From an uncultured Acidobacteriota bacterium (lineage in GTDB: Bacteria; Acidobacteriota; Thermoanaerobaculia; UBA5066; Gp7-AA6), in assembly GCA_963782815.1 (NCBI GenBank), contig CAWALG010000030.1, forward strand, positions 164,284 to 228,283: a stretch of DNA of 64,000 nt, read 5' to 3'. Positions 27,143 to 64,000 of the stretch are shown piece after piece. A model generated the notes under the pieces. That model saw only the letters and a list, made by a program, of their open reading frames with translations. It did not search any database and had not been told where the DNA came from. The position numbers were made by a program, and so were the translations under genes. The first letter of the stretch is position 1. Each line of letters opens with the position of its first letter.

Positions 27143-27147
27143 TCGGT

Positions 27148-44040: not shown

Positions 44041-44079
44041 GAAATTGTGAAACCGTGAATTGTGAATTGTGAATTGTGA
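44037..44079 (+). repeat. (GTGAATT)n heptamer tandem repeat
   Basis: gtgagaaattgtgaaaccgtgaattgtgaattgtgaattgtgaa fills the entire intergenic gap. Confidence 0.85.
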
Positions 44080-45408: not shown

Positions 45409-45442
45409 ACTCGGTGCTCGCTTAACCCTCGGAGGAGGCAGA

Positions 45443-45649
45443 ATGGAGCAGTCGCGCCGGAAGTCCGCAATCTCCACGATCGCAGTTTCTCTCGTCGTCG
45501 GGATCGTCGGCCTGACAACCGTGTCCGGCCGTCCCCGTTTCTCCGGCTACGCCACGGTGGACGTTCTCCAGCTCCTCGCCTCCGGAATGTGCTTCGGAAT
45601 CGCGCTCGTGGGGATTGTGCGTTCCTTCCGAAACTCCGGCCCACGGTAA
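45443..45649 (+). CDS. Small two-TM membrane protein (68 aa)
   Basis: GGAGGAGG RBS; two hydrophobic segments (IAVSLVVGIVGLTTV; LLASGMCFGIALVGIV). Confidence 0.6.
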   Translation: MEQSRRKSAISTIAVSLVVGIVGLTTVSGRPRFSGYATVDVLQLLASGMCFGIALVGIVRSFRNSGPR

Positions 45650-45841
45650 GCGGCCCAGGAGCGCAACGGCGCAACCCGTGCCAGCCCCGGTCGCGGCGCG
45701 AGGAGTCTCCCAGAGGGGAGGAGCCTCGCGCCGCGGGAGCGTAGCGTTTGCGCGTGAATCAGGCGAGCGATCGAGGCCGCATCCGGCCGAGTCGCTCGCC
45801 GGTGCGCCGAAGGCGCAGATCCGCGCAAGCGCGGAGCGACG

Positions 45842-47260
45842 TCAGCGGAGCCCGACGAGGGCGCGGACGGAGTCGAGGAGTTTGGCGGAGTCGTAGCCGA
45901 TGCCGTCCTTGAAGACGGTCTCGACTTTTTCGATGTCGGCGATGTTCTTCGTGGGGTCGCCGTGGATCACGACGAGGTCGGCCTGCTTGCCGGGGGCGAT
46001 CGTGCCGATACGGTCCGCTTCGCCGAGGAACCGCGCGCCGTTCTCCGTCTGGATCTGGATGGCTTCGACGGGGGTGAAGCCGGCTTCGACTAGGAGCTCG
46101 ACCTCGCGCTGGTCGCCGTAGCCGGCGAGCGTGCCGCCGATGCCGGTCGGGTCGCAACCGGCGAGCAGCATGCCGCCCGCCTTCGCGAAGGCGTACTCGA
46201 ATTCCATCTCCTTCTTCAGGAGCGCGGCCCAGTCGGGGCCGGAGGCCGTCGCGCCGGCCCCGGCGCGGCGCGAGAGGTAGTTGACGCGGGCGTCCGGCGT
46301 CATCGCCGCGAGAACTCGCTCTGCCAGCGGCGGCCGGCCCGGGACCTGCAGCTCGAACACGGGAAGAGTCGAGGTGACGGCGACCTTGTGCCGGACGAGA
46401 TCGGCGATCAGCTCACGGGCCTGCGGCCCGGCCATGTCGAGCTTCGAGGTGATGCCGTACATCGCCCGGGCGGACGGGCAGACGTCCGGCTCCTTCCCGG
46501 GGGCGAATTCCATGTCGTAGTACATCGGCCCGTGCTCGAGGTCGTCGATGCCGAGCGCGGCCGCTTCCGGGTAGGTGACCGAGCACAGGTGCGCGGTCAC
46601 CTTGATCTTCCGGGCGTGCGCCTCGGCGATCGCGGCGGCGAGCTCCGCCCGGCTGATGTGCATGTACGCCTTGAAGGAGGTCGCGCCCTGGTCCGCCCAG
46701 AACGCGACGGTCTTGCGGGCGTCCTCGGGACCCTTCAGCACGTGGAGCTGCGGAATGACCGCGCCCGTGCCCTCCAGGTAGGGCCCGGTCACGTGGATTT
46801 TCGGGCCCGGCGCCTTGCCAGCGTCGATCAGCTTCTTGATCTCGAGGTCGGTGTACGGCTCGATCGAGCCGGTCGTGCGGATCGTCGTCACGCCGCAGGC
46901 GAGATAGAGGCGCGGGAAGCTGAAGGCCATCTCGGCGAAGAAGCCCCCGCCCTGCGGATAGAAGAGATGGTCGTGCATCCCGACGAGCCCGGGGATGACC
47001 GTGTACCCGGAGAGGTCCATCACCTTCGCGCCGGCGGGGACAGCGGGCGAAGCGCCCACGGCCTGGATCCTTCCGCCCGAGATGACGAGGGTCTGGTCTT
47101 CACGAGCCGGACCGCCGGTGCCGTCCACGACGCGCACGTGCGTCAACACGACGACCGGCGCGTCCACGCTGACGAAGGCCTTGACCTCGGCAGACAGCGG
47201 CTGCGCCGGCAGGGCCTTCGGAACGAGCAGACAAATCGCGAGCGCCCAGCGGCTTCGCAT
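45842..47260 (-). CDS. Secreted amidohydrolase-family protein (imidazolonepropionase-like fold)
   Basis: Signal peptide; VIPGLVGMHDHL, GVTTIR, KVTAHL, DDLEHG, GTIAPGKQADLV. Confidence 0.88.
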   Translation of the reverse strand: MRSRWALAICLLVPKALPAQPLSAEVKAFVSVDAPVVVLTHVRVVDGTGGPAREDQTLVISGGRIQAVGASPAVPAGAKVMDLSGYTVIPGLVGMHDHLFYPQGGGFFAEMAFSFPRLYLACGVTTIRTTGSIEPYTDLEIKKLIDAGKAPGPKIHVTGPYLEGTGAVIPQLHVLKGPEDARKTVAFWADQGATSFKAYMHISRAELAAAIAEAHARKIKVTAHLCSVTYPEAAALGIDDLEHGPMYYDMEFAPGKEPDVCPSARAMYGITSKLDMAGPQARELIADLVRHKVAVTSTLPVFELQVPGRPPLAERVLAAMTPDARVNYLSRRAGAGATASGPDWAALLKKEMEFEYAFAKAGGMLLAGCDPTGIGGTLAGYGDQREVELLVEAGFTPVEAIQIQTENGARFLGEADRIGTIAPGKQADLVVIHGDPTKNIADIEKVETVFKDGIGYDSAKLLDSVRALVGLR

Positions 47261-47343: not shown

Positions 47344-49959
47344 ATGAGCGTTTCCGCCGGCACGCGCCTCGGCCCCTACGAGGTCCTCGCTCCGCTCGGG
47401 GCGGGAGGAATGGGGGAGGTCTGGAGGGCGCGGGACGGCAAGCTCGGCCGGGAAGTGGCGATCAAGGTGTTGCCGTTTGCGTTCGCGGCCGACACGGAGC
47501 GGCTCTCCCGGTTCCGGCGCGAGGCCCAGGTCCTGGCCTCGCTGAATCACCCGCACATCGGCGCGATTTATGGGCTGGAGGAATCCGGCGGGATCGAGGC
47601 GCTCGTGCTCGAGCTCGTGCCGGGCCAAACGCTGGGCGAGATGCTGGCCGCGGGAGCGCTCCCGCTGGAAGAGGCGCTGGAGATCGCCCGGCAGATCGCC
47701 GGAGCGCTCGAGGCGGCCCACGAGAAGGGGATCGTGCACAGGGACCTGAAGCCTTCCAACGTCAAGCAGACGCCGGAGGGCAAGGTCAAAGTCCTGGACT
47801 TCGGCCTGGCCAAGGCGCTGGAGGTGGAGAGACCGACCTCGGATCTCTCGAGCTCGCCCACGGCGACGGCGGGAACGGAAGCGGGGGTGATCCTGGGCAC
47901 CGCGTCGTACATGTCGTCCGAACAGGCCCGCGGCAAGCCGGTGGACCGGCGGACGGACATCTGGGCGTTCGGCGCCGTGCTCTACGAGATGCTGACGGGA
48001 AAGCGCGCCTTCCCCGGCGAGACAGTCTCCGACGTGCTGGCGGCGATCCTGAAGACCGAGCCGGACTGGAGCGCTCTGCCGCCGGCAACGACTCCGGCGA
48101 TTCGCGAGCTGCTCCGGCGTTGCCTTGAGAAGGACCCGTGGCACCGGCTGCGCGACATCGGCGACGCGCGGATCACGCTCGAGGAATCGGCGCGCGGTGC
48201 CGTCCGCGATGCGCCAGCGGCGCTCGAACCTCCGCGAGCCGTGCGGCGCTCCGTCGTTCCGGCCGCGCTGCTGGGCGTGGCGGTGGGGGCGGCCGCCACG
48301 GTTCTGTCCGTCGTCGCACTCCGGAGGCCGTCACCACCTCCGATGCGCTTCGTCACCGTCACGAATTTCTCCGGCCTGGAAACCCAGCCTTCGCTTTCCC
48401 CCGACGGCCGCTCCGTCGCCTTCGTCTCCAACAGCGACGGTTCCTACGACCTCTGGGTGGGGCTCGCCGCGGGCGGGCGCCTGGTGCGCGTCACGAACGA
48501 CCCGATCGTGGAATCGCACCCGACCTGGTCTCCCGACGGAACGAAAATCGCCTACGCGAAGCTGAAGGAGTCCGGCCTCTGGGACATCTGGGAGATTCCG
48601 GCCCTGGGAGGCGCTCCCCGGCGGGTCGTCGTGGACGCCACCGAGCCCGCCTGGTCCCCCGACGGGCGCTCCCTCGCGTATTGCAATCTGGCGACCGGCA
48701 GAATCTGGACCTGCGACGCCTCCGGAGGCAATCCACGCGCGGTCACGCAACCGGACCCGAAGTATCGCTTTCAACGCCAACCCGCTTTTTCCCACGACGG
48801 GCGGCGGATCGTTTTCGTTCAGCGCCAGGGCGGTCCGTACGGAGAGCTCGCCGTGGCCGAGCTTGCCGGCGGACAGGTCCGGCCTGTCACGCACGACAAT
48901 GTTCTGGTTCATTCGCCCGTCTGGTCGGCGGACGACAGGTTCCTCTACTTCGCTTCCGGCCGCGGCGGGTCCGTCAACATCTGGAAGATCCCATCGGGCG
49001 GCGGCGAGCCGGAGCAGATCACAGCGGGCCAGGGGGACGATGCGGACCTCTCCCTCTCGGCCGACGGCAAGCGGATGGTGTTCTCGACCTACCGGCAGAA
49101 CATCAACATCGGCGTCTCGGACCTGGACTCGAAGGAACCGAGTCTGACTCTCAAGTGGCTGACCTCCGACGCCGCGCGCGGGGAGCTGGGTCCCGCCTAC
49201 TCTCCCGACGGCAAACACATCGCCTACTTCTCCAATCGCAAGGGGGTCGAACGGGAGGGCATCTGGGTCATGGACGCGGACGGCTCGAACCCGACGCCTC
49301 TCGTCGTGGACGAATACCAGAACGTCTTCCCGCGCTGGTATGCCGACGGACGCGCTCTCCTGTTCCGGTCCAGCCTTGCCCGGCTCGGCCTACCGGGCGA
49401 CCAGTTCCGGCGCGTGGCGATTTCGGGCGGGCCTCCGGAGGTCGTCGTGCCGCAGCAACTCGGTCTCACGGCGGACGTCGATTCGAAGGGGCTCATCCTG
49501 AGCAACGACGCGCAGGGCCGCGGGGCCATCTACGATCCGAAGACGAAGCGGACGCGAGTGCTCGAGGCCTGCGGCGGCAGCGCGTTCCGCTGGTCTCCGG
49601 ACGGCCGCAGGATCGCCTACATTGGCCGGCAGGGAAGCGCCCAGGCGGGCCTCTGGGTCTACGACTTCCAGGGCGCCGCGCGCCAGGTCTTTTCCGGCTG
49701 GCTGGTGCAATTCACCTGGACGGGTCCGGACGAGCTCGTCTGCGAAGAGGGGAAATCGGACCTGACCGGCGTCTTCTGGCGGGTCCGGGCGGACGGATCG
49801 GGCCGAGAGAAGATCCCGCTCACGATTTCCCTGGCCACTACGTTCTATCAGCTCCTTTCGAACAACACCTTCGACATCAGTCCCGACGGCCGCCGCCTGG
49901 CCGTCCACATGATGGAACAGCAGGAAGCCGACATCGGCATGATCGAGAACGTCCGCTGA
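47344..49959 (+). CDS. Ser/Thr kinase K1 with TM helix and TolB/PD40 beta-propeller
   Basis: [37 protein letters not shown]; TM helix; repeated SPDG/WSPDG. Confidence 0.93.
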   Translation: MSVSAGTRLGPYEVLAPLGAGGMGEVWRARDGKLGREVAIKVLPFAFAADTERLSRFRREAQVLASLNHPHIGAIYGLEESGGIEALVLELVPGQTLGEMLAAGALPLEEALEIARQIAGALEAAHEKGIVHRDLKPSNVKQTPEGKVKVLDFGLAKALEVERPTSDLSSSPTATAGTEAGVILGTASYMSSEQARGKPVDRRTDIWAFGAVLYEMLTGKRAFPGETVSDVLAAILKTEPDWSALPPATTPAIRELLRRCLEKDPWHRLRDIGDARITLEESARGAVRDAPAALEPPRAVRRSVVPAALLGVAVGAAATVLSVVALRRPSPPPMRFVTVTNFSGLETQPSLSPDGRSVAFVSNSDGSYDLWVGLAAGGRLVRVTNDPIVESHPTWSPDGTKIAYAKLKESGLWDIWEIPALGGAPRRVVVDATEPAWSPDGRSLAYCNLATGRIWTCDASGGNPRAVTQPDPKYRFQRQPAFSHDGRRIVFVQRQGGPYGELAVAELAGGQVRPVTHDNVLVHSPVWSADDRFLYFASGRGGSVNIWKIPSGGGEPEQITAGQGDDADLSLSADGKRMVFSTYRQNINIGVSDLDSKEPSLTLKWLTSDAARGELGPAYSPDGKHIAYFSNRKGVEREGIWVMDADGSNPTPLVVDEYQNVFPRWYADGRALLFRSSLARLGLPGDQFRRVAISGGPPEVVVPQQLGLTADVDSKGLILSNDAQGRGAIYDPKTKRTRVLEACGGSAFRWSPDGRRIAYIGRQGSAQAGLWVYDFQGAARQVFSGWLVQFTWTGPDELVCEEGKSDLTGVFWRVRADGSGREKIPLTISLATTFYQLLSNNTFDISPDGRRLAVHMMEQQEADIGMIENVR

Positions 49960-49980
49960 GGGACTCCGGATGGGTTTGGT

Positions 49981-50421
49981 GACCCTGACCGGCTCTCGTT
50001 CTCCGGCCAGCCTGTTCGAATCGCAGAGAACGTGAACTTCGATTCCGGAGTCTGGCGGGGGAGCTTCACATTCTCTGGAGGGGGCGTCCTCGCCTACCGG
50101 CTCATCTTCATCGTCCCGCCCCCATCCTTCCCCTACGGAGTGACGGTCGATTCCGGCCACATCTACTGAACCAATGGCCTCCTCATCGGGACGATCGGCC
50201 GCGCCGACCTGGATGGGCAGGACGCGGATCCAAGCTTCATCCCTGCGTCCAGCCCCAGAGGAGTCGTAGTCGATTCGTGCCACATCTACTGGGCTAACGA
50301 AAACTTCGGCAGCGACATCCCCGGGACGATCGGCCGTGCCGATCTGGACGGGCAGAACGTGAACCAGAGCTTCATCACCGGCACGACCTCCCCCGAGAGC
50401 GTGGCAGTCGATCCGAACTGA
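49981..50421 (+). pseudogene. Chimeric relic: kinase-propeller fragment fused in frame to a YWTD/NHL-like repeat fragment with an internal stop
   Basis: DPDRLSFSGQPVRIAENV...GVLAYR then YGVTVDSGHIY*TN...IGRADLDG / VDSCHIYWAN...IGRADLDG; TGA at 50167 where the sister repeat has TGG; no start codon. Confidence 0.65.
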
Positions 50422-50982
50422 GCAGCGGCTTGCCCTTCGACGGCCGCGTCGACGGGCTCACCGCGTGCCGAATCGACCGGAAAACCCGCGGTGGCCCTTC
50501 GACGTCGGAGCAGGCGAGCGGATTCCTGCGCCCGCTGATCACGGAAGCGGGCTCCTCCTTCGAGGCTGGATTCCCAGGGCGATGTTCGAGATCGGCGCGA
50601 CTCCCGCAACCAGACTTGCGCCACCAGTATTGCGGGACGCACGACGGAGCGCTTCCTGGTCGTCCGAGGCGCGAAGACGCAAGAAACGATGCGGCGCGGC
50701 GAGCTTTCAAGAAGCTTCAGACGCGCGAAGCAGCGCTTCTGACGAGGACATTTGTTCTCGTCGGCCTAGCCCGCATTATTCATGATCGACTCCGGCCGCC
50801 GCTCCGATCTTTTCCGCCGATACGGCGTCAGCGCTCCTCTGCGATGCGCCCCGGCATCGCCGTCGTCGCGCTTCCTTGTCTCGACGAAAAATCTCAGTCG
50901 CGGACAACCTGTCCCCGGCTGCGATCATCGGTTTCCTGTCACAACGTTCTTTGGCGCAGAGAGTTGCCCGTGTTTCGGCCGG

Positions 50983-51024
50983 GTGACCATGAATAATCCG
51001 GGCTAGTATAATATTGACATGTCA
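50983..51024 (+). promoter_or_regulatory. Candidate sigma70 promoter and operator of the TA operon
   Basis: GTGACC (50983) - 18 nt - TATAAT (51007-51012); perfect palindrome TGACATGTCA at 51015-51024. Confidence 0.5.
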
Positions 51025-51041
51025 GGGAGGTATTACCAAAC

Positions 51042-51281
51042 ATGAAGACGATGAGCCTGAAGATGCCGGCCGCGCTCGAGGAGGAGCTCTCGGAGCTTGC
51101 CCGCAGGACGGGGCGGAGCAAATCGCTCGTCGTCCGCCTGGCACTCTCAGAGTTCCTGCCCCGGCGATCGCGCTCTTCCCGGCGGTCTTTCCTGTCGCGC
51201 GCTTCCGATCTGGCGGGCTCCGTCGCCGGGGCGCGTGACCTCTCCACGAACAAACGCCGGCTCGAAGGTTACGGCCGGTGA
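51042..51281 (+). CDS. vapB: CopG/ribbon-helix-helix antitoxin (VapB-like)
   Basis: MKTMSLKMPAALEEELSELARRTGRSKSLVVRLAL RHH pattern; overlaps the PIN gene. Confidence 0.8.
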   Translation: MKTMSLKMPAALEEELSELARRTGRSKSLVVRLALSEFLPRRSRSSRRSFLSRASDLAGSVAGARDLSTNKRRLEGYGR

Positions 51282-51700
51282 CGGAAGCGGTCATTGTCGA
51301 CACCGGCCCTCTTGTCGCGTTCCTGAACGGCCGGGATCGATATCACGCATGGAGTGAAGAAGTCTTCTCCGGCGTGGACGCGCCGGTCTTCACCTGCGAG
51401 GCGGTTCTTTCGGAGGCGTGTTTCCTCCTGCGGCAAGCGAAGGGCGGAGCGGAAGCTGTCATCACCCTCCTGCATCGCGGTCTCGTCCGCATCCCGTTCC
51501 GCCTGGAGCCCGAGAGCGCCACGATCCGGCGCCTTCTCGCTCGATACGGGAATGTTCCCATGTCGCTCGCCGATGCCTGCCTGGTCCGGATGAGCGAGCA
51601 GATGTCCGAATCCGTCGTTTTGACGCTCGATCGCGCCTTCAAGATCTATCGGCGGCAAGGCCGAAACGTCATCCGGACGTGGATGCCCTCGGGACTCTGA
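51278..51700 (+). CDS. vapC: PIN-domain ribonuclease toxin
   Basis: VIVDTGPLVA, VLSEA, MSLADACL, TLDRAF acidic residues; GTGA overlap with the antitoxin. Confidence 0.88.
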   Translation: MTEAVIVDTGPLVAFLNGRDRYHAWSEEVFSGVDAPVFTCEAVLSEACFLLRQAKGGAEAVITLLHRGLVRIPFRLEPESATIRRLLARYGNVPMSLADACLVRMSEQMSESVVLTLDRAFKIYRRQGRNVIRTWMPSGL

Positions 51701-51736
51701 TGAGAATTGGTGATTCGTGATCGGTGATTTGTGATC
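51700..51736 (+). repeat. GTGATT-like heptamer tandem repeat
   Basis: gatgagaattggtgattcgtgatcggtgatttgtgatc. Confidence 0.65.
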
Positions 51737-51913
51737 AGCGCGGGGATGCGGCTGGGTCCCGACGAAGTTGTTCGGCGCCCGAGCATCTTCAGGGCAAGGA
51801 CGCGGATTCCCGGGGCGACATCTTCGCGCTGGGCGCGGTGCTGTACGAGATGGCGACAGGGAGGAAGGCGTTCGAGGGGGCGAGCCCGGTCGGCTCTGCT
51901 CCCGAAGAATTGA
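51731..51913 (+). pseudogene. Collapsed kinase-gene remnant (5' start + subdomain VIII-IX + 3' end)
   Basis: [13 protein letters not shown], then [35 protein letters not shown] in a shifted frame, then the last 23 nt of K3 (CGGCTCTGCTCCCGAAGAATTGA). Confidence 0.8.
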
Positions 51914-51926
51914 GCGGGCAAGTGGA

Positions 51927-54621
51927 ATGAGCCTGATCTCCGGCAGCCGGCTCGGCCCCTACGAGGTCCTCTCGCCCCTGGGCGCGGGAGGGATGGGGGA
52001 AGTTTACAAGGCGAAGGACGCGCGGCTCGAGCGGACGGTGGCGATCAAGGTCCTGCCGACACAGCTCTCGTCGAGCGAGGAGGTGCGGCAGCGGTTTGAG
52101 CGGGAGGCGAAGACGATCTCGCAGCTTTCGCACCCGCACATCTGCGCGATCTACGACGTCGGAAACCAGGACGGGGTCGAGTACCTTGTCATGGAGTACC
52201 TCGAAGGGGAGACGCTGGCGGAGCGGCTGGTCAAGGGCCCGCTTCCGACGGAGCAGACGCTGCGTTACGGGATCGAGATCGCGGGCGCGCTGGATAAGGC
52301 TCACCGTCAGGGGATCGTGCATCGGGACTTGAAGCCGGCCAACGTCATGCTGACGAAATCGGGCGTCAAGCTCCTGGACTTCGGCCTGGCCAAGGCGGTT
52401 CAGCCGGCGTCTTCGGCAGCCACGTTGACGTCGCTCCCGACGGAGGGTCCGGCGCTGACGGCCGAGGGGACGATCCTCGGGACGTTCCAGTACATGGCGC
52501 CGGAGCAGCTCGAAGCAAAGGAAGCCGATGCCCGGACGGACATCTTCGCCTTTGGCGCCGTGCTGTACGAGATGGCGACGGGGCAGAAGGCGTTTTCGGG
52601 AAGGAGCCGCGCTTCCCTGATCGGCGCGATCCTGAAAGATGAGCCTCCTCCGATTGCGACGATCCAGCCGATGACGCCTCCGGCCCTGGACCGCGTGGTC
52701 CGGACCTGTCTCGCCAAGGACCCGGAAGAGCGTTGGCAAAGTGCCCACGACATCAAGAGCGAGCTGGCGTGGATCGCCCAGGCCGGCTCACAGGCCGGCG
52801 TCGCCGCGACGGCCCTCGGCGGGCGGAAGAGCCGGGAGCGCGTCGCCTGGATCCTGGCGGCCCTCTTCGGAATCGGACTGGCCGTCGCGCTGGCAGTCTC
52901 GGTCATGAGGCGTCCGCGGGCCTCGGGGGAAGAGCGAGCGGTGAAGCTCTCGGTTCTGCCTCCCCAGAAAGAGACGTTCATTCCCGGGATGATCGCTCTC
53001 TCGCCCGACGGGAGCCGCCTGGCTTTTATCGCGGCGGGCGCCGATGGCCAGAATCTCTTGTGGATCCGGCCGCTCGACGCCGTCGAGGCGCGGCCCTTGC
53101 CCGGTACCGAGGGCGCCTACGGTCCCTTCTGGTCTCCCGACGGCCGTTTCCTCGGCTTCTTCGCCGAAGGGAAATTGAAAAAGATCGAGGCTTCGGGCGG
53201 TCCGCCCCAGATCCTCTACAGTCTGGTCACGTTCGTGGGACGGGGCGGCACGTGGAACCGCGACGGAATCATTCTTTTTGCCCCGAGTCCGACGAGTGCT
53301 CTCGTCCGTATTTCAGAGGCCGGAGGCGCGTCCACTCCCGTAACGAAGCTCGACGATTCCAGGCAGGAGAATTCCCACCGCTGGCCCGTCTTCCTGCCGG
53401 ACGGCCGGCACTTCCTCTACTACGCGAGGAGCCGGCAGAAGGAAAACCGCGCGATCTTCGTGGGATCGCTCGATTCGAAGGAGACGCGGTTTCTGATGAA
53501 TGGGACGTCCAACGTCCTCTTCGCCCCCGGCTCCTCCGGGGCGTCCGAGGGCTACCTGCTGTTCGAGCGCGAGGGATGGCTCGTGGCGCGAAAACTCGAC
53601 GCGGCGACTCTTCGATTCGAAGGCGACCCTATCCCGATCGCCGAGAAGATCCAGGCGAGCGATCCTCTGACGGCGGCGATGTTCACGGTCTCGGGAACAG
53701 GGGTTCTCGCTTACGGAAAGGGGACCAGCACCGGTCCCCAGCAGCTGACCTGGTTCGACCGGAGCGGCAAGCGGCTTGGCGCAATCGAGGAACCCGGGTA
53801 CAGCCTGGACATGAACCTGTCACCCGATGAGAAGCGCGTTGCCGTGGATGTCGTCAGCTTCGATGTCGGCGGCCGCGAGCTCTGGCAGATGGAGCTGACG
53901 CGCGGCGTCTCTGCCCGGTTGACGCTCGGAGACAAGCTAGAGGTAAGTCCCGTCTGGTCTCCGGATGGGAGCCGCATCGCCTTCGGTTCGTATTCGACCG
54001 GTGAACCGCCGGATATCATCGAAAAGCCTTCGAGTGGCGTTGGAAAAGAAGAAGCTGCTCTTCCATTCCGATACGCCGAAGTTTCCCGTGGATTGGTCGG
54101 CGGACGGCCGATTCCTCCTTTTCGAATCGAGGGGCTCCGCCGTGAAGTCAAAACTCTGGGTGCTTCCGCTTTCGGGCGACCGCAAGGCCTTTCCCCTCCT
54201 CCAGACCCCCTACAATGAGTCCCTCGGAGCCTTTTCTCCGGATGGGCGCTGGATCGCGTATGTCTCGGACGAGTCGGGACGGCCGGAGGTGTACGTGCAG
54301 ACCTTCCCGATCTCGACCTCCAAGCGGCGGGTCTCGACCAATGGCGGCACGCAGCCTCGCTGGCGACGCGACGGAAAGGAGATCTTCTACGTCGCTCCCG
54401 TCTCGCGCCTCATGGCCGTTGAGGTTACTGCAGGGTCTCTTTCGAGGCCGGCATCCCCGCGGCGCTCTTCGAAGATCGGCGCGACTCCTGGCGTCGGCCT
54501 GCGCCATCAGTACTGCGTGACATCCGACGGTCAGCGCTTCCTCGCCGTCCGAGGCTCCGAAGCACAGGAAACGGCTCCGATCACGGTCGTCTTGAACTGG
54601 ACGGCGGACTTGAAGAAGTAG
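51927..54621 (+). CDS. Ser/Thr kinase K2 with TM and PD40 propellers, frameshift near 54055
   Basis: [24 protein letters not shown]; TM helix; C-terminal PITVVLNW. Confidence 0.9.
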
Positions 54622-54661
54622 CCTCTCCCGGGCGCCGGCTCCCGTTGTAATCTTTCCGGTC

Positions 54662-57330
54662 TTGACCATCCCACAAGGCACCCGTCTCGGCCCTTACGAG
54701 GTCCTCTCTCCGCTCGGCGCGGGAGGGATGGGAGAGGTTTACAAGGCGAAGGACACTCGCCTCGAGCGCACGGTCGCGATCAAAGTGCTTCCGACGCATC
54801 TCTCATCGAGCGAAGAAGTGCGGCAGCGGTTCGAGCGAGAGGCGAAGACGATTTCGCAGCTCTCGCATCCGCACATCTGCGCGCTGTACGACGTCGGGAA
54901 CCAGGACGGCGTCGAGTATCTGGTCATGGAGTACCTGGAGGGGGAGACGCTGGCCGACCGGCTGCTCAAGGGCGCGCTCCCGACGGAGCAGACGCTGCGC
55001 TTCGGGATCGAGATCGCCGACGCGCTGGACAAGGCGCACCGGCAGGGGATCGTGCACCGGGACTTGAAGCCCGGCAACGTCATGCTGACGAAGTCCGGAG
55101 TGAAGCTGCTCGACTTCGGCCTGGCAAAAGCGGTTGCTCCTGCGAAGCAGCCGTCCGGCATGACCTCCCTCCCGACGATGGCGAGCAGTCCCCTGACGCA
55201 GGAGGGGACGATCCTCGGGCACCTTCCAGTACATGGCGCCGGAGCAGCTCGAAGGCAAGGAAGCGGACTCGCGGTCGGACATCTTCGCCTTCGGGGCCGT
55301 TCTCTACGAGATGGCGACGGGCAAGAAGGCGTTCTCCGGCTCGAGCCAGGCGTCCTTGATCTCGGCGATCATGAAGGAGGAGCCCGCGCCGATCGCGGCG
55401 CTCCAGCCGATGACGCCGCCGGCGCTCGACCGGGTTGTCAAGACCTGTCTCGCCAAGGACGCGGAGGACCGCTTCCAGACCGCGCACGACGCGAAGCTCC
55501 AGCTCCAGTGGATCGCCGAGGTCGGCTCCGCGTCCGGCGTTCCGGCGCCGGTCGTCGCGCGCCGCAGGAGCCGCGAGCGCCTCGCCTGGACGGGCTTCGC
55601 GATCGCCGCCCTCGCCGCCGCCCTGTTCGCCGCCGGCTACCTGCGGCGGGCGCCCGCGGCCCGAACGCGGCATCCGTGCCACGCTACCGTTTCCCGAGAA
55701 GATGTTCCTGGGAGAGATGGCGCTCTCTCCCGACGGAACGCGCCTCGCCTTCACGGCCAACAAGGTCGGCATGGAGCCGGCCCTCTGGGTGCGCAACCTC
55801 GACGGGTCTTCCGCGCAGCCCGTGGCCGGCGCGGAGAACGCCTACTTTCCCTTCTGGTCGCCCGACAGCCGGTCGGTCGGCTTCTTCGCGGCCGGGAAGC
55901 TGAAGCGCGTCGATGCCTCCGGGGGCGCGATCCTGACGGTCTGCGACGCGGTGAGAGGCGTCGGCGGGACATGGAACCGCGACGGGACGATCGTCTTCGC
56001 TCCCGCGCCGACCTCCGCTCTCTTCCGCGTCGCGGCGGGCGGCGGAAAGTCGGTCCCCGTCACCAAGCTCGACGCTTCGCGCCACGAAGCCGCGCACCGG
56101 TATCCCCAGTTTCTTCCGGACGGACGCCACTTCCTCTACATGGCCGGAAACCTCGGGGGCGCCACGGACGATCCCGCAAACGCCATACGCGTCGGTTCTC
56201 TCGACGGGAGCGTCGACAAGCTCCTCGTGAAGACACTCTCGAACGCCGGTTACGCTTCGGGCTATCTGCTCTACGGACGCGAGGGGACGTTGCTGGCGCA
56301 GCGCTTCGACACGTCGAAGCTCGAGGTCCGGGGAGAGCCGGTGCCGGCCGTTCCGAAAATCGGGCTTTCCAGCTGGCACAGCAACTGGCTCTTCTCGGCG
56401 TCCGAGAACGGCATGCTCGTGGCCGCGCCTGTTTTCGCCCCGCCCTCCCGGCTCGTCTGGCTCGACAGGAACGGGAAGGAGACCGGTGCGATCGGGGAGC
56501 CGGCCCCTTTCGGGACGCTGCGGCTCTCTCCGGACGGCCGGAAAGTCGCCGCGGACGTGTACGACCCGGTTCACGACACTTCCGACATCTGGATCTACGA
56601 CGCGGCCTCAGGAACGGGCGCGAAGTTCGTGTTCGGACAGGCCCATGAGAGCAACCCGGTCTGGTCGCCCGATGGCTCTCGCATCGTTTTCGTATCCGAC
56701 CGGAAGGCCAAGTCGGGACGCGGCGACATGTGGATGAAGCCGCTCGACGGAGGCAAGGAGGAAATCTTCTCCGAGTCCGAAGACGCCCGCACTCCGGAGG
56801 ACTGGTCGAAAGACGGACGGTTCATTTCCTGCAATGTCATTCCGGCGAAAGGCAAGAGAGACTACGAGGTCTGGGTCGTCGACACGGCCGAGCAGAACCG
56901 CGTCGCTCCGTTCGCGACGGGAGCCCTCAACGATGTTTCGAGCCGTTTCTCCCCCGACGGCCGTTGGATCGCCTACTCCTCCAACGAGTCCGGAAGGTTC
57001 GACGTGTACGTGCGCCCGTTCCCCTCGGGAGCGGGGACCTGGCAGGTCTCCACGGCCGGCGGCGGATTGCCCGTGTGGAGGCGCGACGGGAAGGAGCTCT
57101 TCTTCGTCAGCCTCGATTCCAAGATCATGGCCGTCCCTGTCGAAGCCGACTCGAAGTTTCATGCCGGCGCCCCGGTCGTTCTCTTTCCCCTCCGCTCGTC
57201 GGGCGGCACCGCGAATTACGACGTATCTCCCGACGGGCAACGATTCCTAGTCAACAGCCCGGCCTCGGACGTCGCCTCTCCTCCAATCGACCTCTTCGTC
57301 CATTGGACGGCTCTGCTCCCGAAGAATTGA
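54662..57330 (+). CDS. Ser/Thr kinase K3 with TM and PD40 propellers, frameshifts near 55220 and 55680
   Basis: ORFs 54662..55903, 55233..56648 and 55435..57330 join into the kinase-TM-propeller architecture. Confidence 0.88.
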
Positions 57331-57343
57331 GCGGGCAAGTGAA

Positions 57344-59974
57344 ATGAGCCTGATCTCCGGCAGCCGGCTCGGCCCCTACGAGGTCCTCTCGCCCCTGGGC
57401 GCGGGAGGGATGGGGGAGGTTTACAAGGCGAGGGACGCGCGGCTCGAGCGGACGGTGGCGATCAAGGTCCTGCCGACACAGCTCTCGTCGAGCGAGGAGG
57501 TGCGGCAGCGGTTCGAGCGGGAGGCGAAGACGATCTCGCAGCTTTCGCACCCGCACATCTGCGCGATCTACGACGTCGGGAACCAGGACGGGGTCGAGTA
57601 CCTCGTCATGGAGTACCTCGAAGGGGAGACGCTGGCGGAGCGGCTGGTCAAGGGCCCGCTTCCGACGGAGCAGACGCTGCGTTACGGGATCGAGATCGCG
57701 GACGCGCTGGATAAGGCGCACCGTCAGGGGATCGTGCATCGGGACTTGAAGCCGGCCAACGTCATGCTGACGAAATCGGGCGTCAAGCTCCTGGACTTCG
57801 GCCTGGCCAAGGCGGTTCAGCCGGCGTCTTCGGCAGCCCCGTTGACGTCGCTCCCGACGGAGGGTCCGGCGCTGACGGCCGAAGGGACGATCCTCGGGAC
57901 CTTCCAGTACATGGCGCCGGAGCAGCTCGAAGCAAAGGAAGCCGATGCCCGGACGGACATCTTCGCCTTCGGCGCGGTGCTGTACGAGATGGCGACGGGG
58001 CAGAAGGCGTTTTCGGGACGGAGCCGCGCTTCCCTGATCGGCGCGATCCTGAAAGATGAGCCGCCGCCCATCTCGACGGTGCAGCCGATGACGCCTCCCG
58101 CGTTGGACCGCGTCGTCAAGACGTGTCTCGCCAAGGACCCGGAGGAGCGCTGGCACTCGGCTCACGATGTCGGCCTCGAGCTTCGCGCCGTCTCCGAAGG
58201 CGCGGTGATTCCCGGCTCGCGACAGGCGGCTTCACGCTTTCGATTTCTTCCCTGGTTGGTCGCGGTCGTTGCGGCCGCCGCCGCGGTGGCGTCTCTGTCG
58301 ATCGTGCGCGCGCGGAGTGGTCAGCCACCGCGTACGATCCGCTTCTCCATCCCGCCTCCGGCAAATGGAGCCTTTTCATCCTTTGTGGAGGTCTCTTTTC
58401 TCGCCGTCTCGCCCGACGGATCGCAGCTCGCATACGTCGCATCGGATTCGCAGCACGGGCAGCGCGTCTTCCTCCGGCCACTGTCCGCGTTCGACGCCCG
58501 GCCGATTCCCGGAACCGAAGGCGCCGACTCGATCTTCTTTTCGCCCGATGGCCGTTCGCTCGCTTTTTTCGCGCAGGACAAGTTGAAACGCGTCGAGCTC
58601 GCCGGAGGCGCGGCCGTCTCGATCTGCGACGTCCCCTCCGGCGCGCACTCCTCAGGGACCTGGGGCAGCGGCGGAAACATTCTCTTTGCCGGAGCAAAGG
58701 CGATTTCCCGCGTTTCGGCGGCGGGCGGCGTGCCGGCCGAGACGATCCGGTGCGATCTCTCGCGTGGCGAGGCGCGGGTCCGCTGGCCCTGGTTCCTCCC
58801 GGACGGCGAGCGATTCCTTTACCTTCTTCGTCATCTCGACGGCCATGGCGAGTTGATGCTGGCAGAGCCCGGGAAGCGGCCACGCCCCCTCATGGCCCTG
58901 GAGTCTGCCGTGCAGTACGTCGACCCCGGCTATCTCGTGTTCGCGAGGGAAGGGGCCCTGCTGGCGCAGCGCTTCGATGCGGATAGCGGCCGGGTCGTGG
59001 GCGAGCCCTTTTCGATCGCCGAGCGCGTGCGGTACTTTGCCTCGACGGGCGCCGCTTCCTTCGCCACGTCGCGGACCGGTACGCTCGCCTACCAAGCCCA
59101 GGAGAACGTGAGGAGTCTGAACTGGTTCGACCGAGCCGGTCGCGAGCTCGGAACCGTCGGTTCGCCCGGGTACTACTTGAGCGTCTCGATTTCCCCGGAC
59201 GGCCGGCGGGCTGTCTTCGATCGAGCCCGGTCCGGGATCGGGACCTACGACGTCTGGTCTCTCGACTTCGAGCGGGGGACGGAGACCCCCGTCACTTCGG
59301 AGCCGGGAACCGAGGTCTATCCAATCTGGCTGCCCGGCGGAAGGAGCGTCGCCTACTCCGCCACCCGGACCACCGTGCCGCAACTCTTCCGCAGGGACCT
59401 CGCGACCGGGAAGGAGGAGAAGCTCCTTCCCGTAGGAGGATTCCAGATCGCACAAGATGTCTCGCCCGACGGCAGGTCTCTCGCTTACATAGAATCGAGC
59501 GGGCACGGCTGGTTCGACGTCTGGGCTCTCGATCTGTCCGGCGGCGGTAAGCCGGTCGCTCTCCTGCAGTCGCCGTTCGACAAGGGTTACGTGCGCTTCT
59601 CGGCCGACGGCCGCTCCGTAGCGATGATCACGGGCGAGTCCGGCCAATCGGAAGTCTACGTGACGGCCTATCCCGGGCCCGGGGAGAGGATCCGCGTTTC
59701 GACCGGAGGAGCCCGGGGTCTGCGCTGGAGCCGCGAGGGCCGGGAGCTCCTCTATCTCTCTGCGGACGGGCACATGATGTCGGTACCTGTGAGGACGTCT
59801 CCTTCGCCCGAGCTCGGAGCTCCGACCGCGCTCTTCGAACTGAAAGGGTCGATCTGGGCGGGCTTCGACGTATCGCCGGACGGCAAGCGATTTCTCGCCA
59901 TCGTTCCGAAGATTGTCGCCGACGAGCTTCCGCTCACCGTTGTCGCCAACTGGGCATCCGAGGTCCGCAAGTGA
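57344..59974 (+). CDS. Ser/Thr kinase K4 with TM and PD40 propellers
   Basis: Intact 876-aa ORF; kinase domain nearly identical to K2. Confidence 0.93.
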
Positions 59975-62668
59975 CGCTCGCCTCGGGGAGTCGCCTCGGC
60001 CCCTACGAGATCCTTGCGCCGATCGGCGCAGGGGGGATGGGGGAGGTCTACAAGGCGAAAGACACTCGCCTCGAGCGGACGGTCGCGGTGAAGGTGCTGC
60101 CGTCGCACCTCTCTTCGTCCGAGGAGGTCCGGCAGCGGTTCGAGCGGGAGGCGAAGACGATCTCCTCGCTCTCGCACCCTCACATCTGCGCGCTCTACGA
60201 CGTCGGGAACCAGGACGGGGTCGAGTACCTCGTCATGGAGTACCTCGAAGGGGAGACGCTGGCGGACCGGCTGCTCAAGGGCGCGCTCCCGGCGGAGCAG
60301 ACGCTGCGTTTCGGGATCGAGATGGCCGACGCGCTGGACAAGGCGCACCGGCAGGGGATCGTGCACCGGGACTTGAAGCCCGGCAACGTGATGCTGACGA
60401 AGACCGGCGTGAAACTCCTCGACTTCGGCCTGGCGAAGTCATTTGAGCGGCCGCTCGACGCGGCCGAGGTCGCGGCCGGAAGTCGCATCCCGACTCACGG
60501 CTGCACGCGTGGGGGCTCACAACTTGACGCAGGAAGGGACGATTCTCGGGACGTTCCAGTACATGGCTCCCGAGCAGCTCGAGGGCAAGGAGGCGGACGC
60601 GCGCACGGACATCTTCGCCTTCGGCGCCGTCCTCTACGAGATGGCGACCGGGCGGAAGGCCTTCGCCGGCACGAGCCAGGCCTCGCTCATCTCCGCCATC
60701 ATGAAGGAGGAACCGGCGCCCATCGCGACACTTCAGCCGATGACACCGCCGGCTCTGGAGCGCGTGGTCCGGACCTGTCTCGCCAAGGACCCCGAGGACC
60801 GCTGGCAGAGCGCGCACGACATCAAGAGCGAGCTAGCGTGGATCTCCCAGGCCGGCTCGCAGGCCGGGGTCGCCGCTCCCGTCGCCGTCTCGCGGCGGAG
60901 GCGGGATCGGGCCGGATGGGCGGTTCTGGGAGTCCTCGCCGGCGCCGCCCTCGCGGCCGCCGTGTTCTGGGCGCTCTCCCGAACGCGGGGGGCGGCCCCG
61001 CAGCCCGTGACGAGGGTGGCCATCCCGATCCCGACCGGCGACGCCTTCGTCACCGACAACTACTCCTCGCTTGCCATCTCTCCCGACGGGCGCCGGGTCG
61101 TCTTCGTCGGACGCCGCGCGGACAAGAGACAGCTCTTTCTGCGTTCGCTCGACGCGGCGGAAGCCGTTCCCATCGCCGGAACCGAGGGTGCTTATTCGCC
61201 GTTTTTCTCGCCGGACGGCCAGTCGATCGGTTTCTGGAACGACGCGAGGATCAAGAAGGTCTCGGTCTCTGGAGGAGCGCCGGTCACGATCTGCGACTGC
61301 GGCGTTTACGAGCGGATGCTGGGCGGCTCCTGGGCGCCGGACGACACGATCGTATTCACGCCGAAATGGGCGAGCGGAATCCTGCGGGTCCCGGCTTCCG
61401 GAGGAGAGCCGAAGCCCGTGACGAAGGTGGACGCGAAGGGGGAGAACCGCGGGCACATCTGGCCGGAAGTGCTGCCGGGAGGCAAGGCCGTCCTCTACAC
61501 GATCTTCACCGGTGGAAGCCTGGACGATTACGCCATCGCCGTCTCCCCTCTCTCGACCGGGGAGCGAAAGATTCTCGTCAAGGGCGCGACGTACGGCCGG
61601 TACGCCGCCTCGGGCCATCTTCTCTACGTGCGCGCCGGCACCCTCTTCGCCGTGCCGTTCGACGTCCATCGGCTCGAGCTCACTGGAGTCGCCGTCGCCG
61701 TCGCGCAGGGAGTGTACGAAAACACGAATGGCGGCGCGGGCTACGCCGCGTCGGCCAACGGAACGCTCCTCTACGCGTCAGGAGGGATGGCGCTTCCCGA
61801 ACGGTCGCTGATGTGGGCGGACCGCAACGGAACGACGACCCCGGTGACGAAGATCCGAAAGTCTTTCAGCGATCCCCGCCTCTCTCCCGACGGCAAGCGA
61901 TTGGCCGTCCAGGTCCAGGCGGAGACGTACGACATCTGGGTCCTCGACATCGACCGCGACAGCCTGACGCGGTTCTCCTTCGGCAAGGACGACGCCCTCC
62001 CCGTCTGGTCGCCGGATGGAAGGCGAATCGTTTACAACTCGAGCCAGGCGGGGACATACAACCTCTACCTGCGCCGGTCGGACGGAAGCGGCTCGGACGA
62101 GCGCCTGACGACGGACCAGGACAACTCGAACGCTTCGTCCTTCTCTCCCGACGGCAGACTCCTTGTCTTCAACAAGGTCCGCGCGGGGATGCCGGAGATC
62201 TGGGTCTATCCCTTCGACAAAGGGTCTTCGCCGCGCCCCATCCTCCAGGGCCCATTCCGGTACGGGGGCGCAATGCTCTCGCCCGATGGGAAATGGCTGG
62301 CCTACGAATCCAACGAATCGGGAAAGGTAGAGGTCTACGTCACGGAGTTTCCCGGGCCCGGCGGCAAGTGGCAGATCTCGACGGACGGTGGTCGGGGCGC
62401 CCTGTGGGCGCCGGACGGCCGCGAGATCTTCTATCGGAAAGACAAGAAGGTCATGCGCGTCGCGGTCACGACGGCGCCGGCTTTTACGGCCTCGCGTCCG
62501 GAGACGCTCTTCGAAGGGGAGTACGAGAGCGGCTGGGACATCGCCCCGGACGGAAAGCGGTTCCTCATGATCAAGGACGAGACCGCTGAGTCGGCCCCCA
62601 AGCACTTGAACCTGGTGCTGAACTGGTTCGAGGACCTGAAGGCGCGGAGCCGGAGCGCTTCGAAGTGA
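59971..62668 (+). CDS. Ser/Thr kinase K5 with TM and PD40 propellers, frameshift near 60500
   Basis: ORFs 59971..62589 (N-part) and 60443..62668 (C-part); GTG overlaps the K4 stop; C-terminal HLNLVLNWF. Confidence 0.88.
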
Positions 62669-62678
62669 TCCTGGCGGG

Positions 62679-64000
62679 ATGATGGAACCCGGAACGCGGC
62701 TGGGCCCGTACGAAATCGTCGCGACCCTCGGCGCGGGCGGAATGGGAGAGGTCTACCGGGCCCGCGACAGCCGGTTGAAACGGGATGTCGCGATCAAGGT
62801 CCTGCCGGCGTCCTTCTCCAGTGACCCCGAGCGGCTGCGCCGTTTCGAGTTGGAGGCGCAGGCGGCGGGCAGCCTGAACCATCCCGGGATCACCGCGGTG
62901 TACGACTTCGGCACGCACGAGGGCGCGCCCTACATCGTCACGGAGCTTCTGGAAGGCGAGACGCTGCGGGCGCGGGTCGCGGGCGGGCCGCTGCCGTCCC
63001 GCAAGGCGCTCGACTACGCGGCGCAGCTCGCGAGAGGCCTGGCCGCCGCTCATGAAAAGGGGATCGTCCACCGGGATCTGAAGCCGGAGAACGTTTTCGT
63101 CACGCGCGACGGCCGCGTCAAGATCCTGGACTTCGGTCTGGCGAAGCTGAAGGAGAGCGATCTGCCCGCGGCCGGCCAGACCCATCTGCCGACCGAGGCC
63201 GGCGGAACGGAGCCGGGGGTCGTGCTCGGAACCATGGGATACATGTCCCCCGAGCAGGTGCGGGGCAAGCCCGCCGACCGCCGATCGGACATCTTCTCCT
63301 TCGGCGCGATTCTCTACGAGATGCTCTCGGGGCAGCGCGCCTTCCGCGCGGACACGGCCGCGGACACGATCACGGCGATCCTGACGAAGGAGCCTCCGGA
63401 CCTCTCGCAGACCAACCGCGACGTCCCCCCGGGCCTGGAGCGGATCGTGCGCCACTGCCTGGAGAAGAACTCCGAGGAGCGCTTCGAGTCGGCGCGCGAC
63501 CTCGCCTTCGATCTCGAAGCCCTGTCGGGGATTTCGGGGAGCGCGCCGGCAGTCACGACCGCGCCCGCCGCCGCGCGCCGGCGGCGTCCGGTCGCGCTGG
63601 CGCTCGTGGTGCTCATTGCCCTGGCGGGGATGGCGGCGGCCTACTTTGCCGGCAAGAAGGCGGGATACGTCAATCCTCCGAGCTTCCGCCAGATCACGTT
63701 CCGCCGGGGCCAGATCCAGTCGGCCCGGTTCGCGCCCGACGGTCAGACCATCCTCTACTCCGCGGCGTGGGAGGGAAGGCCCGTCGAGGTCTTCGTCAGC
63801 CGCCTGGACAGCCCGGAATCGCGGCCGTTCGGCCTGGCGGGCGCCGAGGTTCTGTCCATTTCTCCTTCCGGCGAGATGGCCGTCTCCCTGGGACGCCGTC
63901 CGCTGGGCGGCTTCGTGTCGACCGGGACCCTGGCCCGGATCGGGATGACCGGAGGAGGCTCGCCCAAGGAGGTGCTCGAGGACGTCCAGTGGGCGGATTG
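62679..64000 (+). CDS. Ser/Thr kinase K6 with TM and propeller start (runs off the window)
   Basis: [14 protein letters not shown]...[35 protein letters not shown] helix, RFAPDGQT; open to 64000, hence absent from the ORF track. Confidence 0.9.
   Translation, partial: MMEPGTRLGPYEIVATLGAGGMGEVYRARDSRLKRDVAIKVLPASFSSDPERLRRFELEAQAAGSLNHPGITAVYDFGTHEGAPYIVTELLEGETLRARVAGGPLPSRKALDYAAQLARGLAAAHEKGIVHRDLKPENVFVTRDGRVKILDFGLAKLKESDLPAAGQTHLPTEAGGTEPGVVLGTMGYMSPEQVRGKPADRRSDIFSFGAILYEMLSGQRAFRADTAADTITAILTKEPPDLSQTNRDVPPGLERIVRHCLEKNSEERFESARDLAFDLEALSGISGSAPAVTTAPAAARRRRPVALALVVLIALAGMAAAYFAGKKAGYVNPPSFRQITFRRGQIQSARFAPDGQTILYSAAWEGRPVEVFVSRLDSPESRPFGLAGAEVLSISPSGEMAVSLGRRPLGGFVSTGTLARIGMTGGGSPKEVLEDVQWAD

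Follow-up and report, generated by a model that had tools for sequence, protein, structure and literature searches.

How does a bacterial genome come to carry a row of receptor kinases with similar cytoplasmic halves and strongly differing sensors, and which of the two halves has been changing? To our knowledge, no branch of signal sensing in bacteria is less well understood than the receptor Ser/Thr kinases, and we know of hardly any ligand. The window analysed here is a 64,000-nt stretch of DNA whose host is an uncultured soil acidobacterium (Thermoanaerobaculia). Its initial annotation had described a diversifying repertoire in which a constant kinase is coupled to variable propellers.

Layout and domain composition of the row

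Six receptor-type Hanks Ser/Thr kinase genes (K1 to K6) lie between 47344 and 64000, co-oriented as initially annotated and all on the forward strand. K1 (47344..49959) encodes an 871-aa receptor Ser/Thr kinase with its kinase domain at residues 12-269, a transmembrane (TM) helix at 308-326 and a PD40 double propeller. It is followed by K2 (51927..54621; ~899 aa, with the C-terminal 180 aa in the next frame), K3 (54662..57330; ~890 aa over three frames), K4 (57344..59974; an intact 876-aa receptor kinase), K5 (59971..62668; ~897 aa, its start overlapping the K4 stop by 4 nt) and K6, an 859-aa receptor kinase of outlier type that occupies 62679..64000 of the window and ends at 65255 in window numbering. 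The row had been thought to comprise at least six genes and to continue past the window; K6 itself does so, by 1.25 kb, but the array consists of exactly six genes, and downstream of K6 come DinB, a TPR protein and an MFS transporter. Metabolic genes flank the array. The tight packing described initially was found from K2 to K6 (spacers of 40, 13, -4 and 10 nt), unlike the K1-K2 interval of 1.97 kb. All in all, K1-K6 are six paralogous receptor-type Hanks Ser/Thr kinases in an operon-like row, which supports the earlier reading of an operon-like tandem array.

The K1-K2 interval holds four further features, all on the forward strand. The first is a YWTD-like propeller repeat remnant (50120..50422) made of IYWxN...GTIGRADLDGQN units, in which one W codon reads TGA; strain L001, which is 97% identical, has a version of this remnant with an extra 975 bp. 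Then come a vapB-like gene for a 79-aa RHH antitoxin (51042..51281), with a sigma-70-like promoter upstream at 50983-51012, and a vapC-like gene for a 140-aa PIN-domain toxin (51278..51700; PIN match at E 3.8e-9) that overlaps vapB by 4 nt. The Pfam scan gave no match for the antitoxin frame, and RHH_1 was weak on its L001 orthologue. With a PIN toxin following a small overlapping antitoxin ORF, the pair at 51042-51700 is a predicted type II VapBC module; vapC is a lower-GC insert that was found in this strain group only. The last feature is a kinase gene relic (51741..51895) that corresponds to nt ~539-692 of a kinase, has neither start nor N-lobe and is ~78% identical to the K4-type kinase of genome G006.

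Every one of the six proteins gave a Pkinase match (PF00069; E 1e-33 to 1e-51, 116-175 bits against a gathering cut-off of 31.7), with the domain divided between two frames in K3 and K5. The GxGxxG, VAIK-type (I/V)K, HRDLKPxN (RD type) and DFG motifs are intact in 6/6 kinases and at the APE motif the sequence is APE, SSE or SPE, in agreement with the annotation of an RD-type Hanks kinase in each. The kinase region (1-285) of the K4 AF2 model has a bilobal fold that best matched mycobacterial PknB, PknA and PknE (target-normalised TM 0.8-0.88), with 35% identity to PknB and PknA. The cytoplasmic domains of K1-K6 are therefore predicted RD kinases resembling PknB. Near-identity of the K2-K5 kinases, as claimed initially, holds for the K2/K4 pair (96.4% aa identity) and not for the whole set (81-96%), K3 and K5 being 81-85% identical to K2/K4. 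The K2-K5 heads are one slowly evolving subfamily, and the K1 and K6 kinases are outlier types with ~52% identity to it.

A single hydrophobic helix (19-residue peak), preceded by basic residues, was found within residues ~303-334 in each of K1-K6. The K4 AF2 model also has this helix, at 304-320, followed by an all-beta ectodomain at 332-868; the annotation of one TM helix per protein is thus upheld in 6/6. PD40 (PF07676) scored above its gathering threshold in K1 (191 bits), K2 (59), K3 (102), K4 (70) and K5 (122). PD40 repeats after the helix, attributed earlier to all six proteins, are accordingly confirmed for K1-K5, and the K6 ectodomain lies mostly beyond the window. The ectodomains measure ~550 aa with roughly 44-56 strands, and the model matched tandem double propellers over 545-605 columns, against ~340 for TolB, which was the only PDB family found by sequence and also one of the top structural matches. 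Precomputed matches to Tricorn_N (PF26549) and Tricorn_2nd (PF26550) exist for K4 and its homologues and are often weak or faint; hmmscan returned none at E <= 0.001. No NHL match, the mark of a six-bladed NHL propeller, was obtained in the K1-K6 sensors, the TolB N-terminal alpha/beta domain is absent from K1-K6, and no Pal-like or other Tol-Pal gene is linked to the array. Sequence and model together show that in each K protein a single TM helix links a cytoplasmic kinase to a double beta-propeller of PD40/TolB type in the periplasm. With similar kinases and ectodomains only 26-45% identical, the description of a constant signalling module joined to differing extracytoplasmic propellers stands.

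The row belongs to a genome-wide kinase expansion that the initial annotation overlooked. The genome has 99 kinase loci in 4.06 Mb, at least 51 of them with a PD40 ectodomain and 53 in arrays, with arrays of 9, 6, 6, 5, 3, 3 and 3 genes among them. Against these 99 stand three FHA and two PP2C loci. Relatives have from 24 to >58 Pkinase matches each (n=30), with >=40 in 29/30, and the family counts >8000 members.

Kinase-head exchange and the age of the sensors

K2 and K4 share a tract that extends from -37 to ~+715, its K2 copy (51890..52641, forward strand) being 98% identical to its K4 copy (57307..58058, forward strand). DNA identity is 97-100% along the tract and ~40% on either side, and the two proteins are 96% identical in the kinase versus 38% in the ectodomain. 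The K4 copy stands in its native context of K3 tail, 13-nt spacer and K4 kinase. The K2 copy opens with displaced K3-type last codons and stop, followed by the K3-K4 spacer; the 'ALLPKN*' within the tract is the C-terminal end that K3-type genes conserve. These features show that the K2 position received a copy of ~750 bp, K3 tail included, whose source was the K3-K4 junction. The AU test on the kinase alignment rejected a K4-type clade (p = 0.0008, for a group chosen after the trees were seen), and relative to its orthologue K4 has a dS of 0.75 in the kinase and 0.43 in the ectodomain. Congruence of kinase and propeller trees, which would have spoken against the initial reading, was thus not found, as both the AU test and the sharp K2/K4 conversion tract indicate. 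The K3- and K5-type kinases mostly follow their ectodomain types in the tree. The K2-K5 heads serve as substrates for homologous recombination because long stretches of similar DNA are common to them. This genome has a single kinase-only tract at >=90% identity; head exchange is therefore occasional, not continuous.

Each type from K1 to K6 has ectodomain orthologues in other genomes at 60-93% identity (93-99% for the K1 orthologues in L001 and G007), and every type clade is starred in the ectodomain tree, where the K6-type forms its own clade. Whole-domain dN/dS in close orthologue pairs was 0.20-0.28 for the ectodomain and 0.10-0.29 for the kinase, slightly higher for the ectodomain in most pairs. 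All six sensor domains represent ancient, separate types under purifying selection, and rapid diversification of the propellers was not borne out. An arms race, in which propellers would be under diversifying selection for changing ligands (phage, competitors, peptides) and the kinase held constant, could draw on the identity of neighbouring ectodomains (26-45%) as opposed to kinases (81-96%), on array content that varies between close relatives and on the slight dN/dS excess. We consider it unlikely, however, given the conserved orthologues of every ectodomain type with their low whole-domain dN/dS, and given that the K4 ectodomain is better conserved than the K4 kinase (79% and 72%, respectively, to the L002 orthologue). 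Positive selection could act at a few propeller surface residues. The contrast between conserved kinase and divergent propeller is mostly the product of ancient sensor divergence, a slow kinase and at least one recent head replacement. These results indicate that the row is reshaped by recombination within shared kinase DNA and not by fast sensor evolution.

Comparison of array content across relatives showed that synteny varies: in same-genus genomes this locus holds 2-6 genes in differing type combinations. In strain L001, a crossover at the 3' edge of the K2/K4 tract has removed K2ext-K3-K4kin. Array variation consists of gene content and of which kinase sits on which sensor. We tentatively suggest a broader possibility, that the kinase head (~0.75-0.9 kb) is at once a shared output and a portable homology region that makes TM-double-propeller sensors exchangeable cassettes; through unequal crossovers and conversions between heads, Thermoanaerobaculia populations would acquire, drop and recombine sensors and take up toxin-antitoxin cassettes at the junctions, yielding a species-level variable 'pan-receptorome' of periplasmic sensors on one phosphorylation network. 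Such a system, if true, would parallel in prokaryotes the dynamics of plant RLK and NLR clusters, but with no hypermutation.

Proposed signalling and integrity of the genes

We infer the signalling steps from PknB/PknD-type kinases. By this analogy, every propeller would recognise a separate ligand in the periplasm, most likely a peptide, envelope protein or glycan, and binding would lead to kinase dimerisation and activation-loop autophosphorylation. Similar heads would feed a small common set of cytoplasmic targets, for which the few FHA and PP2C loci also speak. Alternatively, the TolB-like propellers might have endogenous partners, either envelope proteins or partners linked to peptidoglycan, so that the array would report the state of the envelope and not external ligands. 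That TolB was the one solved family recovered by sequence, and a top structural match as well, is consistent with this, and sensor types are conserved across species, as endogenous partners would predict. Nevertheless, about 50 distinct PD40-type ectodomains per genome are far more than the plausible endogenous partners, neither a TolB N-terminal domain nor a linked Pal-like gene accompanies them, and the flanking genes are metabolic, all of which makes envelope monitoring improbable.

The sequence as given does not read K2, K3 and K5 as single open frames, a point missed in the initial annotation. K2 has one break at ~54066-54090, inside an A-rich run; K3 has an extra C at 55220, between 'TILG' and 'TFQYMAPE', and a 1-nt shift at 55662, just past the TM helix; K5 has one break in the activation loop at ~60470-60500, adjoining a 12-nt repeat. 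Two independent assemblies both show a garbled K5 activation loop, and this site could be unstable for real; a true frameshift is conceivable in K3 or K5. Motifs are conserved in the frames on both sides of each break, without stop codons or other decay. In the same assembly, which is 56.7% complete, rpoB is spread over three frames by two breaks, and candidate frame switches occur at ~0.29 per kb in kinase genes as well as elsewhere, an approximate comparison since the detector gives false positives. The L001 and G005 assemblies likewise contain indels. Because rpoB is also split and the break rate outside kinase genes is equal, the breaks in K2, K3 and K5 most likely reflect indels introduced by a long-read-type assembly and not pseudogenisation.

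A decaying array, with K2, K3 and K5 as real pseudogenes in a birth-and-death graveyard and only K1, K4 and K6 functional, would fit the four breaks across three genes and the 43/99 kinase domains of the genome that span >1 frame, and the kinase relic and propeller-repeat remnant do represent real gene decay at the locus. It is very unlikely all the same, in view of the broken rpoB, the equal break rate, and the nature of the breaks as 1-nt indels between perfectly conserved motifs; moreover, of ten K2- to K6-type copies that were read as single ORFs in G002, G006, G005 and G007, eight are intact, and the first gene of the G005 and G006 loci is truncated. This assembly and several related ones are rich in 1-nt indels, and apparent pseudogenes in it are therefore not to be trusted as such. 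Repetitive genes in an error-prone assembly might suggest dispersed paralogues collapsed or chained into a false array, but this is extremely improbable and the array is real, because L001 (an independent ENA assembly) and same-genus genomes keep the same flanks and the same amidohydrolase-K1-vapBC-K2... and K5-K6-DinB adjacencies, and the K2 and K4 tracts, which differ at 13 sites, are not collapsed. Taken together, we hold it to be probable that the locus is a recombining, operon-like row of receptor kinases with old sensors, assembly errors as breaks and signalling of the kind outlined above.

Significance and relation to known systems

About 100 Hanks kinases occupy this 4-Mb genome, approximately half of them with one architecture, the periplasmic double PD40 propeller, and many in operon-like rows. 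The sensor types are old and conserved and therefore define a finite set of ectodomains for expression and ligand screening. The near-interchangeability of the heads points to natural chimeras and hence to chimeric-receptor assays, and strain-level structural variants make population-genomic association with habitat possible.

In the survey of Tyagi, Anamika and Srinivasan (2010, PMC2877116), PD40 repeats rank with the domains that prokaryotic Ser/Thr kinases most frequently carry; this domain census does not deal with tandem arrays, sensor types, head exchange or an Acidobacteriota expansion. Mycobacterium tuberculosis PknD, a receptor Ser/Thr kinase whose beta-propeller is extracellular (Good et al. 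2004; Greenstein et al. 2007, PMC1847690), shares with K1-K6 the order of N-terminal cytoplasmic Hanks kinase, single TM helix and extracytoplasmic beta-propeller. PknD, however, is a single gene with one six-bladed NHL propeller in a monoderm, whereas the K1-K6 sensor is a ~550-aa double propeller of PD40/TolB type in the periplasm of a diderm, and the genes occur in tandem arrays, with about 50 such receptors per genome. PD40 repeats are also common to TolB of Tol-Pal and to the N-terminal propellers of Tricorn protease, and the precomputed, often weak Tricorn matches suggest tandem propellers in the K ectodomains; unlike these proteins, K1-K6 have no TolB N-terminal domain, protease domain or Tol-Pal linkage, and their propeller is fused to a kinase via a TM helix.

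Myxobacterial kinomes reportedly reach a very high Hanks-kinase density (Perez et al. 2008, PNAS). The number of loci found here is comparable with the densest myxobacterial genomes, but in another phylum and a much smaller genome, with most copies of one receptor architecture and many in arrays. Plant LRR-RLK arrays change copy number through unequal crossing-over. Like K1-K6, these clusters are tandem and join variable ectodomains to a conserved kinase; the resemblance does not go beyond analogy. The ectodomain fold is unrelated, and the genes here are prokaryotic, predicted to be co-transcribed, and carry no domain-wide signal of positive selection.

Gene order and reading frames of the array

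The window covers positions 164284-228283 of contig C30 in an Acidobacteriota genome (G000) of 4.06 Mb assembled in 41 contigs, which database hits assign to the class Thermoanaerobaculia. ORF listing combined with a Pfam scan placed six receptor-type Hanks Ser/Thr kinase genes on its forward strand: K1 (47344-49959), K2 (51927-54621), K3 (54662-57330), K4 (57344-59974), K5 (59971-62668) and K6 (62679 to 65255 in window numbering, its end lying outside the window). The initial annotation had described a tandem array of at least six co-oriented kinase-TM-propeller genes; the array stands, and it consists of exactly six genes, because K6 is followed by DinB, a TPR protein and an MFS transporter. 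On the 5′ side lie metabolic genes encoding a rhodanese-MBL protein, an SSF symporter, an NTP transferase, a GHMP kinase and a divergent amidohydrolase. In all six proteins the RD-type Hanks kinase is complete, its HRDLKPxN, DFG and APE-like motifs included, and basic residues precede a single hydrophobic helix at residues ∼303-334; PD40 repeats fill the ∼550 residues after the helix. Because K2 to K6 are separated by only 40, 13, -4 and 10 nt and the spacers contain no convincing terminator or promoter, K2-K6 look co-transcribed, as judged from the sequence. A search beside the array for FHA, PP2C and ECF sigma genes found none. An unrelated Hanks kinase, a 300-aa ORF without a propeller that is 35% identical to the K4 kinase, is encoded on the reverse strand 23 kb upstream of the array (24022-24924).

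K2, K3 and K5 are not single ORFs in the raw sequence. K3 is broken by a surplus C at 55220, between '...EGTILG' and 'TFQYMAPE', and by a 1-nt shift at 55662, directly past the TM helix. K5 changes frame within the activation loop, near 60470-60500, and K2 in an A-rich run at ∼54066-54090, which leaves its final ∼180 residues in the next frame. Most likely, these breaks are indel errors of a long-read-type assembly, since candidate frame switches detected by codon-usage Viterbi segmentation occurred at ∼0.29 per kb inside and outside kinase genes alike, rpoB is spread over three frames, CheckM completeness is 56.7% (94-97% in relatives), and conserved motifs are encoded on either side of every break, with no further decay. 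Candidate in-gene frame switches number about 900-1000 in the genome, and 43 of its 99 kinase domains are spread over two or more frames. Pfam validation of the detector on non-kinase genes was only partly informative, several junctions being normal gene borders, and rpoB and completeness therefore serve as the main evidence. Because K3 and K5 each have a break close to the activation loop, programmed frameshifting or phase variation was considered. It was rejected: K3 carries a 1-nt insertion after GGG and K5 a garbled loop, so that the two events are unlike, K2 breaks elsewhere, and rpoB and ∼900 other places break alike. One-nucleotide indels were seen throughout the assembly (for example G000:C28:37255-41456), and pseudogene calls in this genome need read support. 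The activation loop of the K5 type includes a 12-nt tandem repeat (60459-60486). The loop is garbled by several indels both here and at 17000-17200 of L001, a 97%-identical strain assembled independently; the K5 orthologue of a same-genus genome, G002, carries an insertion in the same loop. This loop is either a consensus-error hot spot or truly length-variable.

Predicted structure of the kinase and sensor

An AF2 model of K4, built from a 54-sequence alignment (pLDDT 82), comprised a kinase (residues 1-285), a TM helix (304-320) and an all-beta ectodomain (332-868; pLDDT ∼90). The kinase model resembled M. tuberculosis PknB, PknA and PknE, with TM-scores of 0.8-0.88 and ∼35% identity. Because a fold search with the full-length model returned kinase matches only, a model of the ectodomain alone was built (pLDDT 78). 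It aligned with the tandem double-propeller proteins Pwp2/Utp, Aip1 1nr0 and 2ymu over 545-605 columns and with TolB, the only solved family matched by the ectodomain sequence, over ∼340 columns. The model suggests that the sensor is a double propeller of ∼12 blades, a number taken from the 44-56 strands counted, because TM-scores to double propellers were low (0.3-0.38).

Kinase heads, sensors and recombination at the locus

Identities were computed after stitching the frames. K2 and K4 share 96% identity in the kinase domain (the head) and 38% in the ectodomain; the other K2-K5 pairs share 81-85% and 35-45%, and K1 or K6 compared with the rest ∼52% and 26-32%, respectively. The near-identity initially attributed to all K2-K5 kinases thus holds for K2 and K4 and not for the other pairs, and the picture of a constant module joined to variable sensors is anatomically correct.

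In DNA sequence, K2 and K4 match at 97-100% from -37 to about +715 relative to the gene start. Identity falls abruptly to ∼40% upstream and decays downstream to about 45% or less by +850. Ahead of K2, the first 24 nt of this tract encode 'ALLPKN*', a C-terminus that K3-type genes conserve in four genomes, and the 13-nt K3-K4 spacer comes next, which identifies the K3-K4 junction as the donor context copied into the K2 position. Directly 5′ of the K2 start (51741-51913) lies a relic of a kinase gene (nt ∼539-692, ∼78% identity) fused to displaced terminal codons copied from a K3-type gene; the fusion is a scar left by earlier rearrangements. The K2/K4 tract is the only kinase-only stretch of at least 90% identity in the genome; five other near-identical pairs span whole genes. 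Whole kinase genes or gene groups are duplicated between contigs at 91-97% DNA identity (C30:1-5000 and C31:1-5200; C20:∼25000-27700 and C30:∼44000-46700; C34:∼72000-74800 and C6:352000-354600), reflecting either recent segmental duplication or the co-assembly of strain variants. In L001, the upstream flank of K2 precedes a head that is a mosaic of K2 and K4, and from nt 675-719 on the sequence is purely K4, so that the K2 ectodomain, K3 and the K4 kinase are missing; a crossover at the tract's 3′ edge would be expected to produce this loss. Together, the tract and the structure of L001 indicate that heads are real substrates for unequal recombination, which alters copy number and head-sensor pairing.

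The family is very large: a search that reached saturation found >8000 proteins, mostly from Acidobacteriota, and full-length K4 homologues reach 76% identity. The K4 orthologue on a metagenome contig, L002, is 79% identical to K4 in the ectodomain and only 72% in the kinase. In the ectodomain tree, every sensor type formed a strongly supported clade on a long stem. The kinase tree was shallow, and the K4 kinase of the window grouped with that of K2 and with a K2-type gene of the same-genus genome G007, apart from other K4-type kinases. Forcing K4-type genes together on the kinase alignment cost 45.6 lnL units (AU p = 0.0008); this group was chosen on the basis of the ectodomain tree, with both trees already known. 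Between K4 and its orthologue, dS was higher in the kinase (0.75) than in the ectodomain (0.43), as a replacement of the head would predict. Concerted evolution of all kinase heads across the genome was rejected, because kinases of the K3 and K5 types fall mainly with their own orthologues and only one kinase-only tract of at least 90% identity was found.

Same-genus genomes and L001 carry this locus downstream of the amidohydrolase gene, and the number and types of its genes differ among them: two in G005 (K3 and K5 types), three in G006 (K4, K3 and K5 types), five in G002, K1, K2-type and K5-like genes in G007, and six of a different set in L001, where two additional genes with orphan ectodomains lie between K4 and K5. 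The dynamics initially proposed hold in part, the trees being incongruent and the array content variable, but the proposal that the sensors are diversifying was unsupported: Nei-Gojobori dN/dS of ectodomains was 0.20-0.28 in close orthologue pairs, reaching 0.42 in saturated distant pairs, and that of kinases was 0.10-0.29 in orthologue pairs. Both parts are under purifying selection.

Between K1 and K2 lies a vapB (RHH)/vapC (PIN) pair (51042-51700) of lower GC (0.64), with its own sigma-70-like promoter at 50983-51012. It is present only in the window and in L001. Its absence from the locus in four same-genus genomes, and the fact that the RHH-PIN pair ahead of the L002 array is unrelated, rule it out as a conserved array component; because that unrelated pair also precedes an array, array junctions seem to be repeated landing sites of toxin-antitoxin cassettes. 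The vapC stop is directly followed by a 14-nt direct repeat (GGTGATTCGTGATC x2; 51709-51736). Just past K1 (50120-50422) are two to three YWTD/LDL-receptor-B-like propeller repeats (IYWxN...GTIGRADLDGQN...VAVD), one with TGA in place of a W codon, which look like the remnant of another propeller gene; L001 has ∼975 bp more of such repeat at window position 50103/50104.

Genomic scale and relation to known receptor kinases

Of the 99 kinase loci in the genome, at least 51 encode a PD40-type ectodomain and 53 are grouped in arrays of at least two, with sizes of 9, 6, 6, 5 (plus K1), 3, 3 and 3. Among the matches listed per relative, Pkinase counts ranged from 24 to at least 58 in all 30 relatives searched, with at least 40 in all but one. 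Only three FHA and two PP2C loci were found in the genome, a pattern consistent with many sensors feeding into few downstream components. One FHA locus (G000:C16:258649-259779) adjoins a receptor kinase of the same family as K1-K6, and its product is a candidate downstream partner.

The combination of STK and PD40 domains was already listed in a 2010 census (PMC2877116); our literature search found this PD40 domain census only, and no description of arrays, conserved sensor types or head exchange. The K1-K6 array is real and represents a receptor-kinase family that is both widespread and uncharacterised. Among characterised proteins, M. tuberculosis PknD comes closest, combining a kinase with a TM helix and an NHL propeller; the K1-K6 sensor differs from that of PknD in its repeat family, its predicted double propeller and its periplasmic location.
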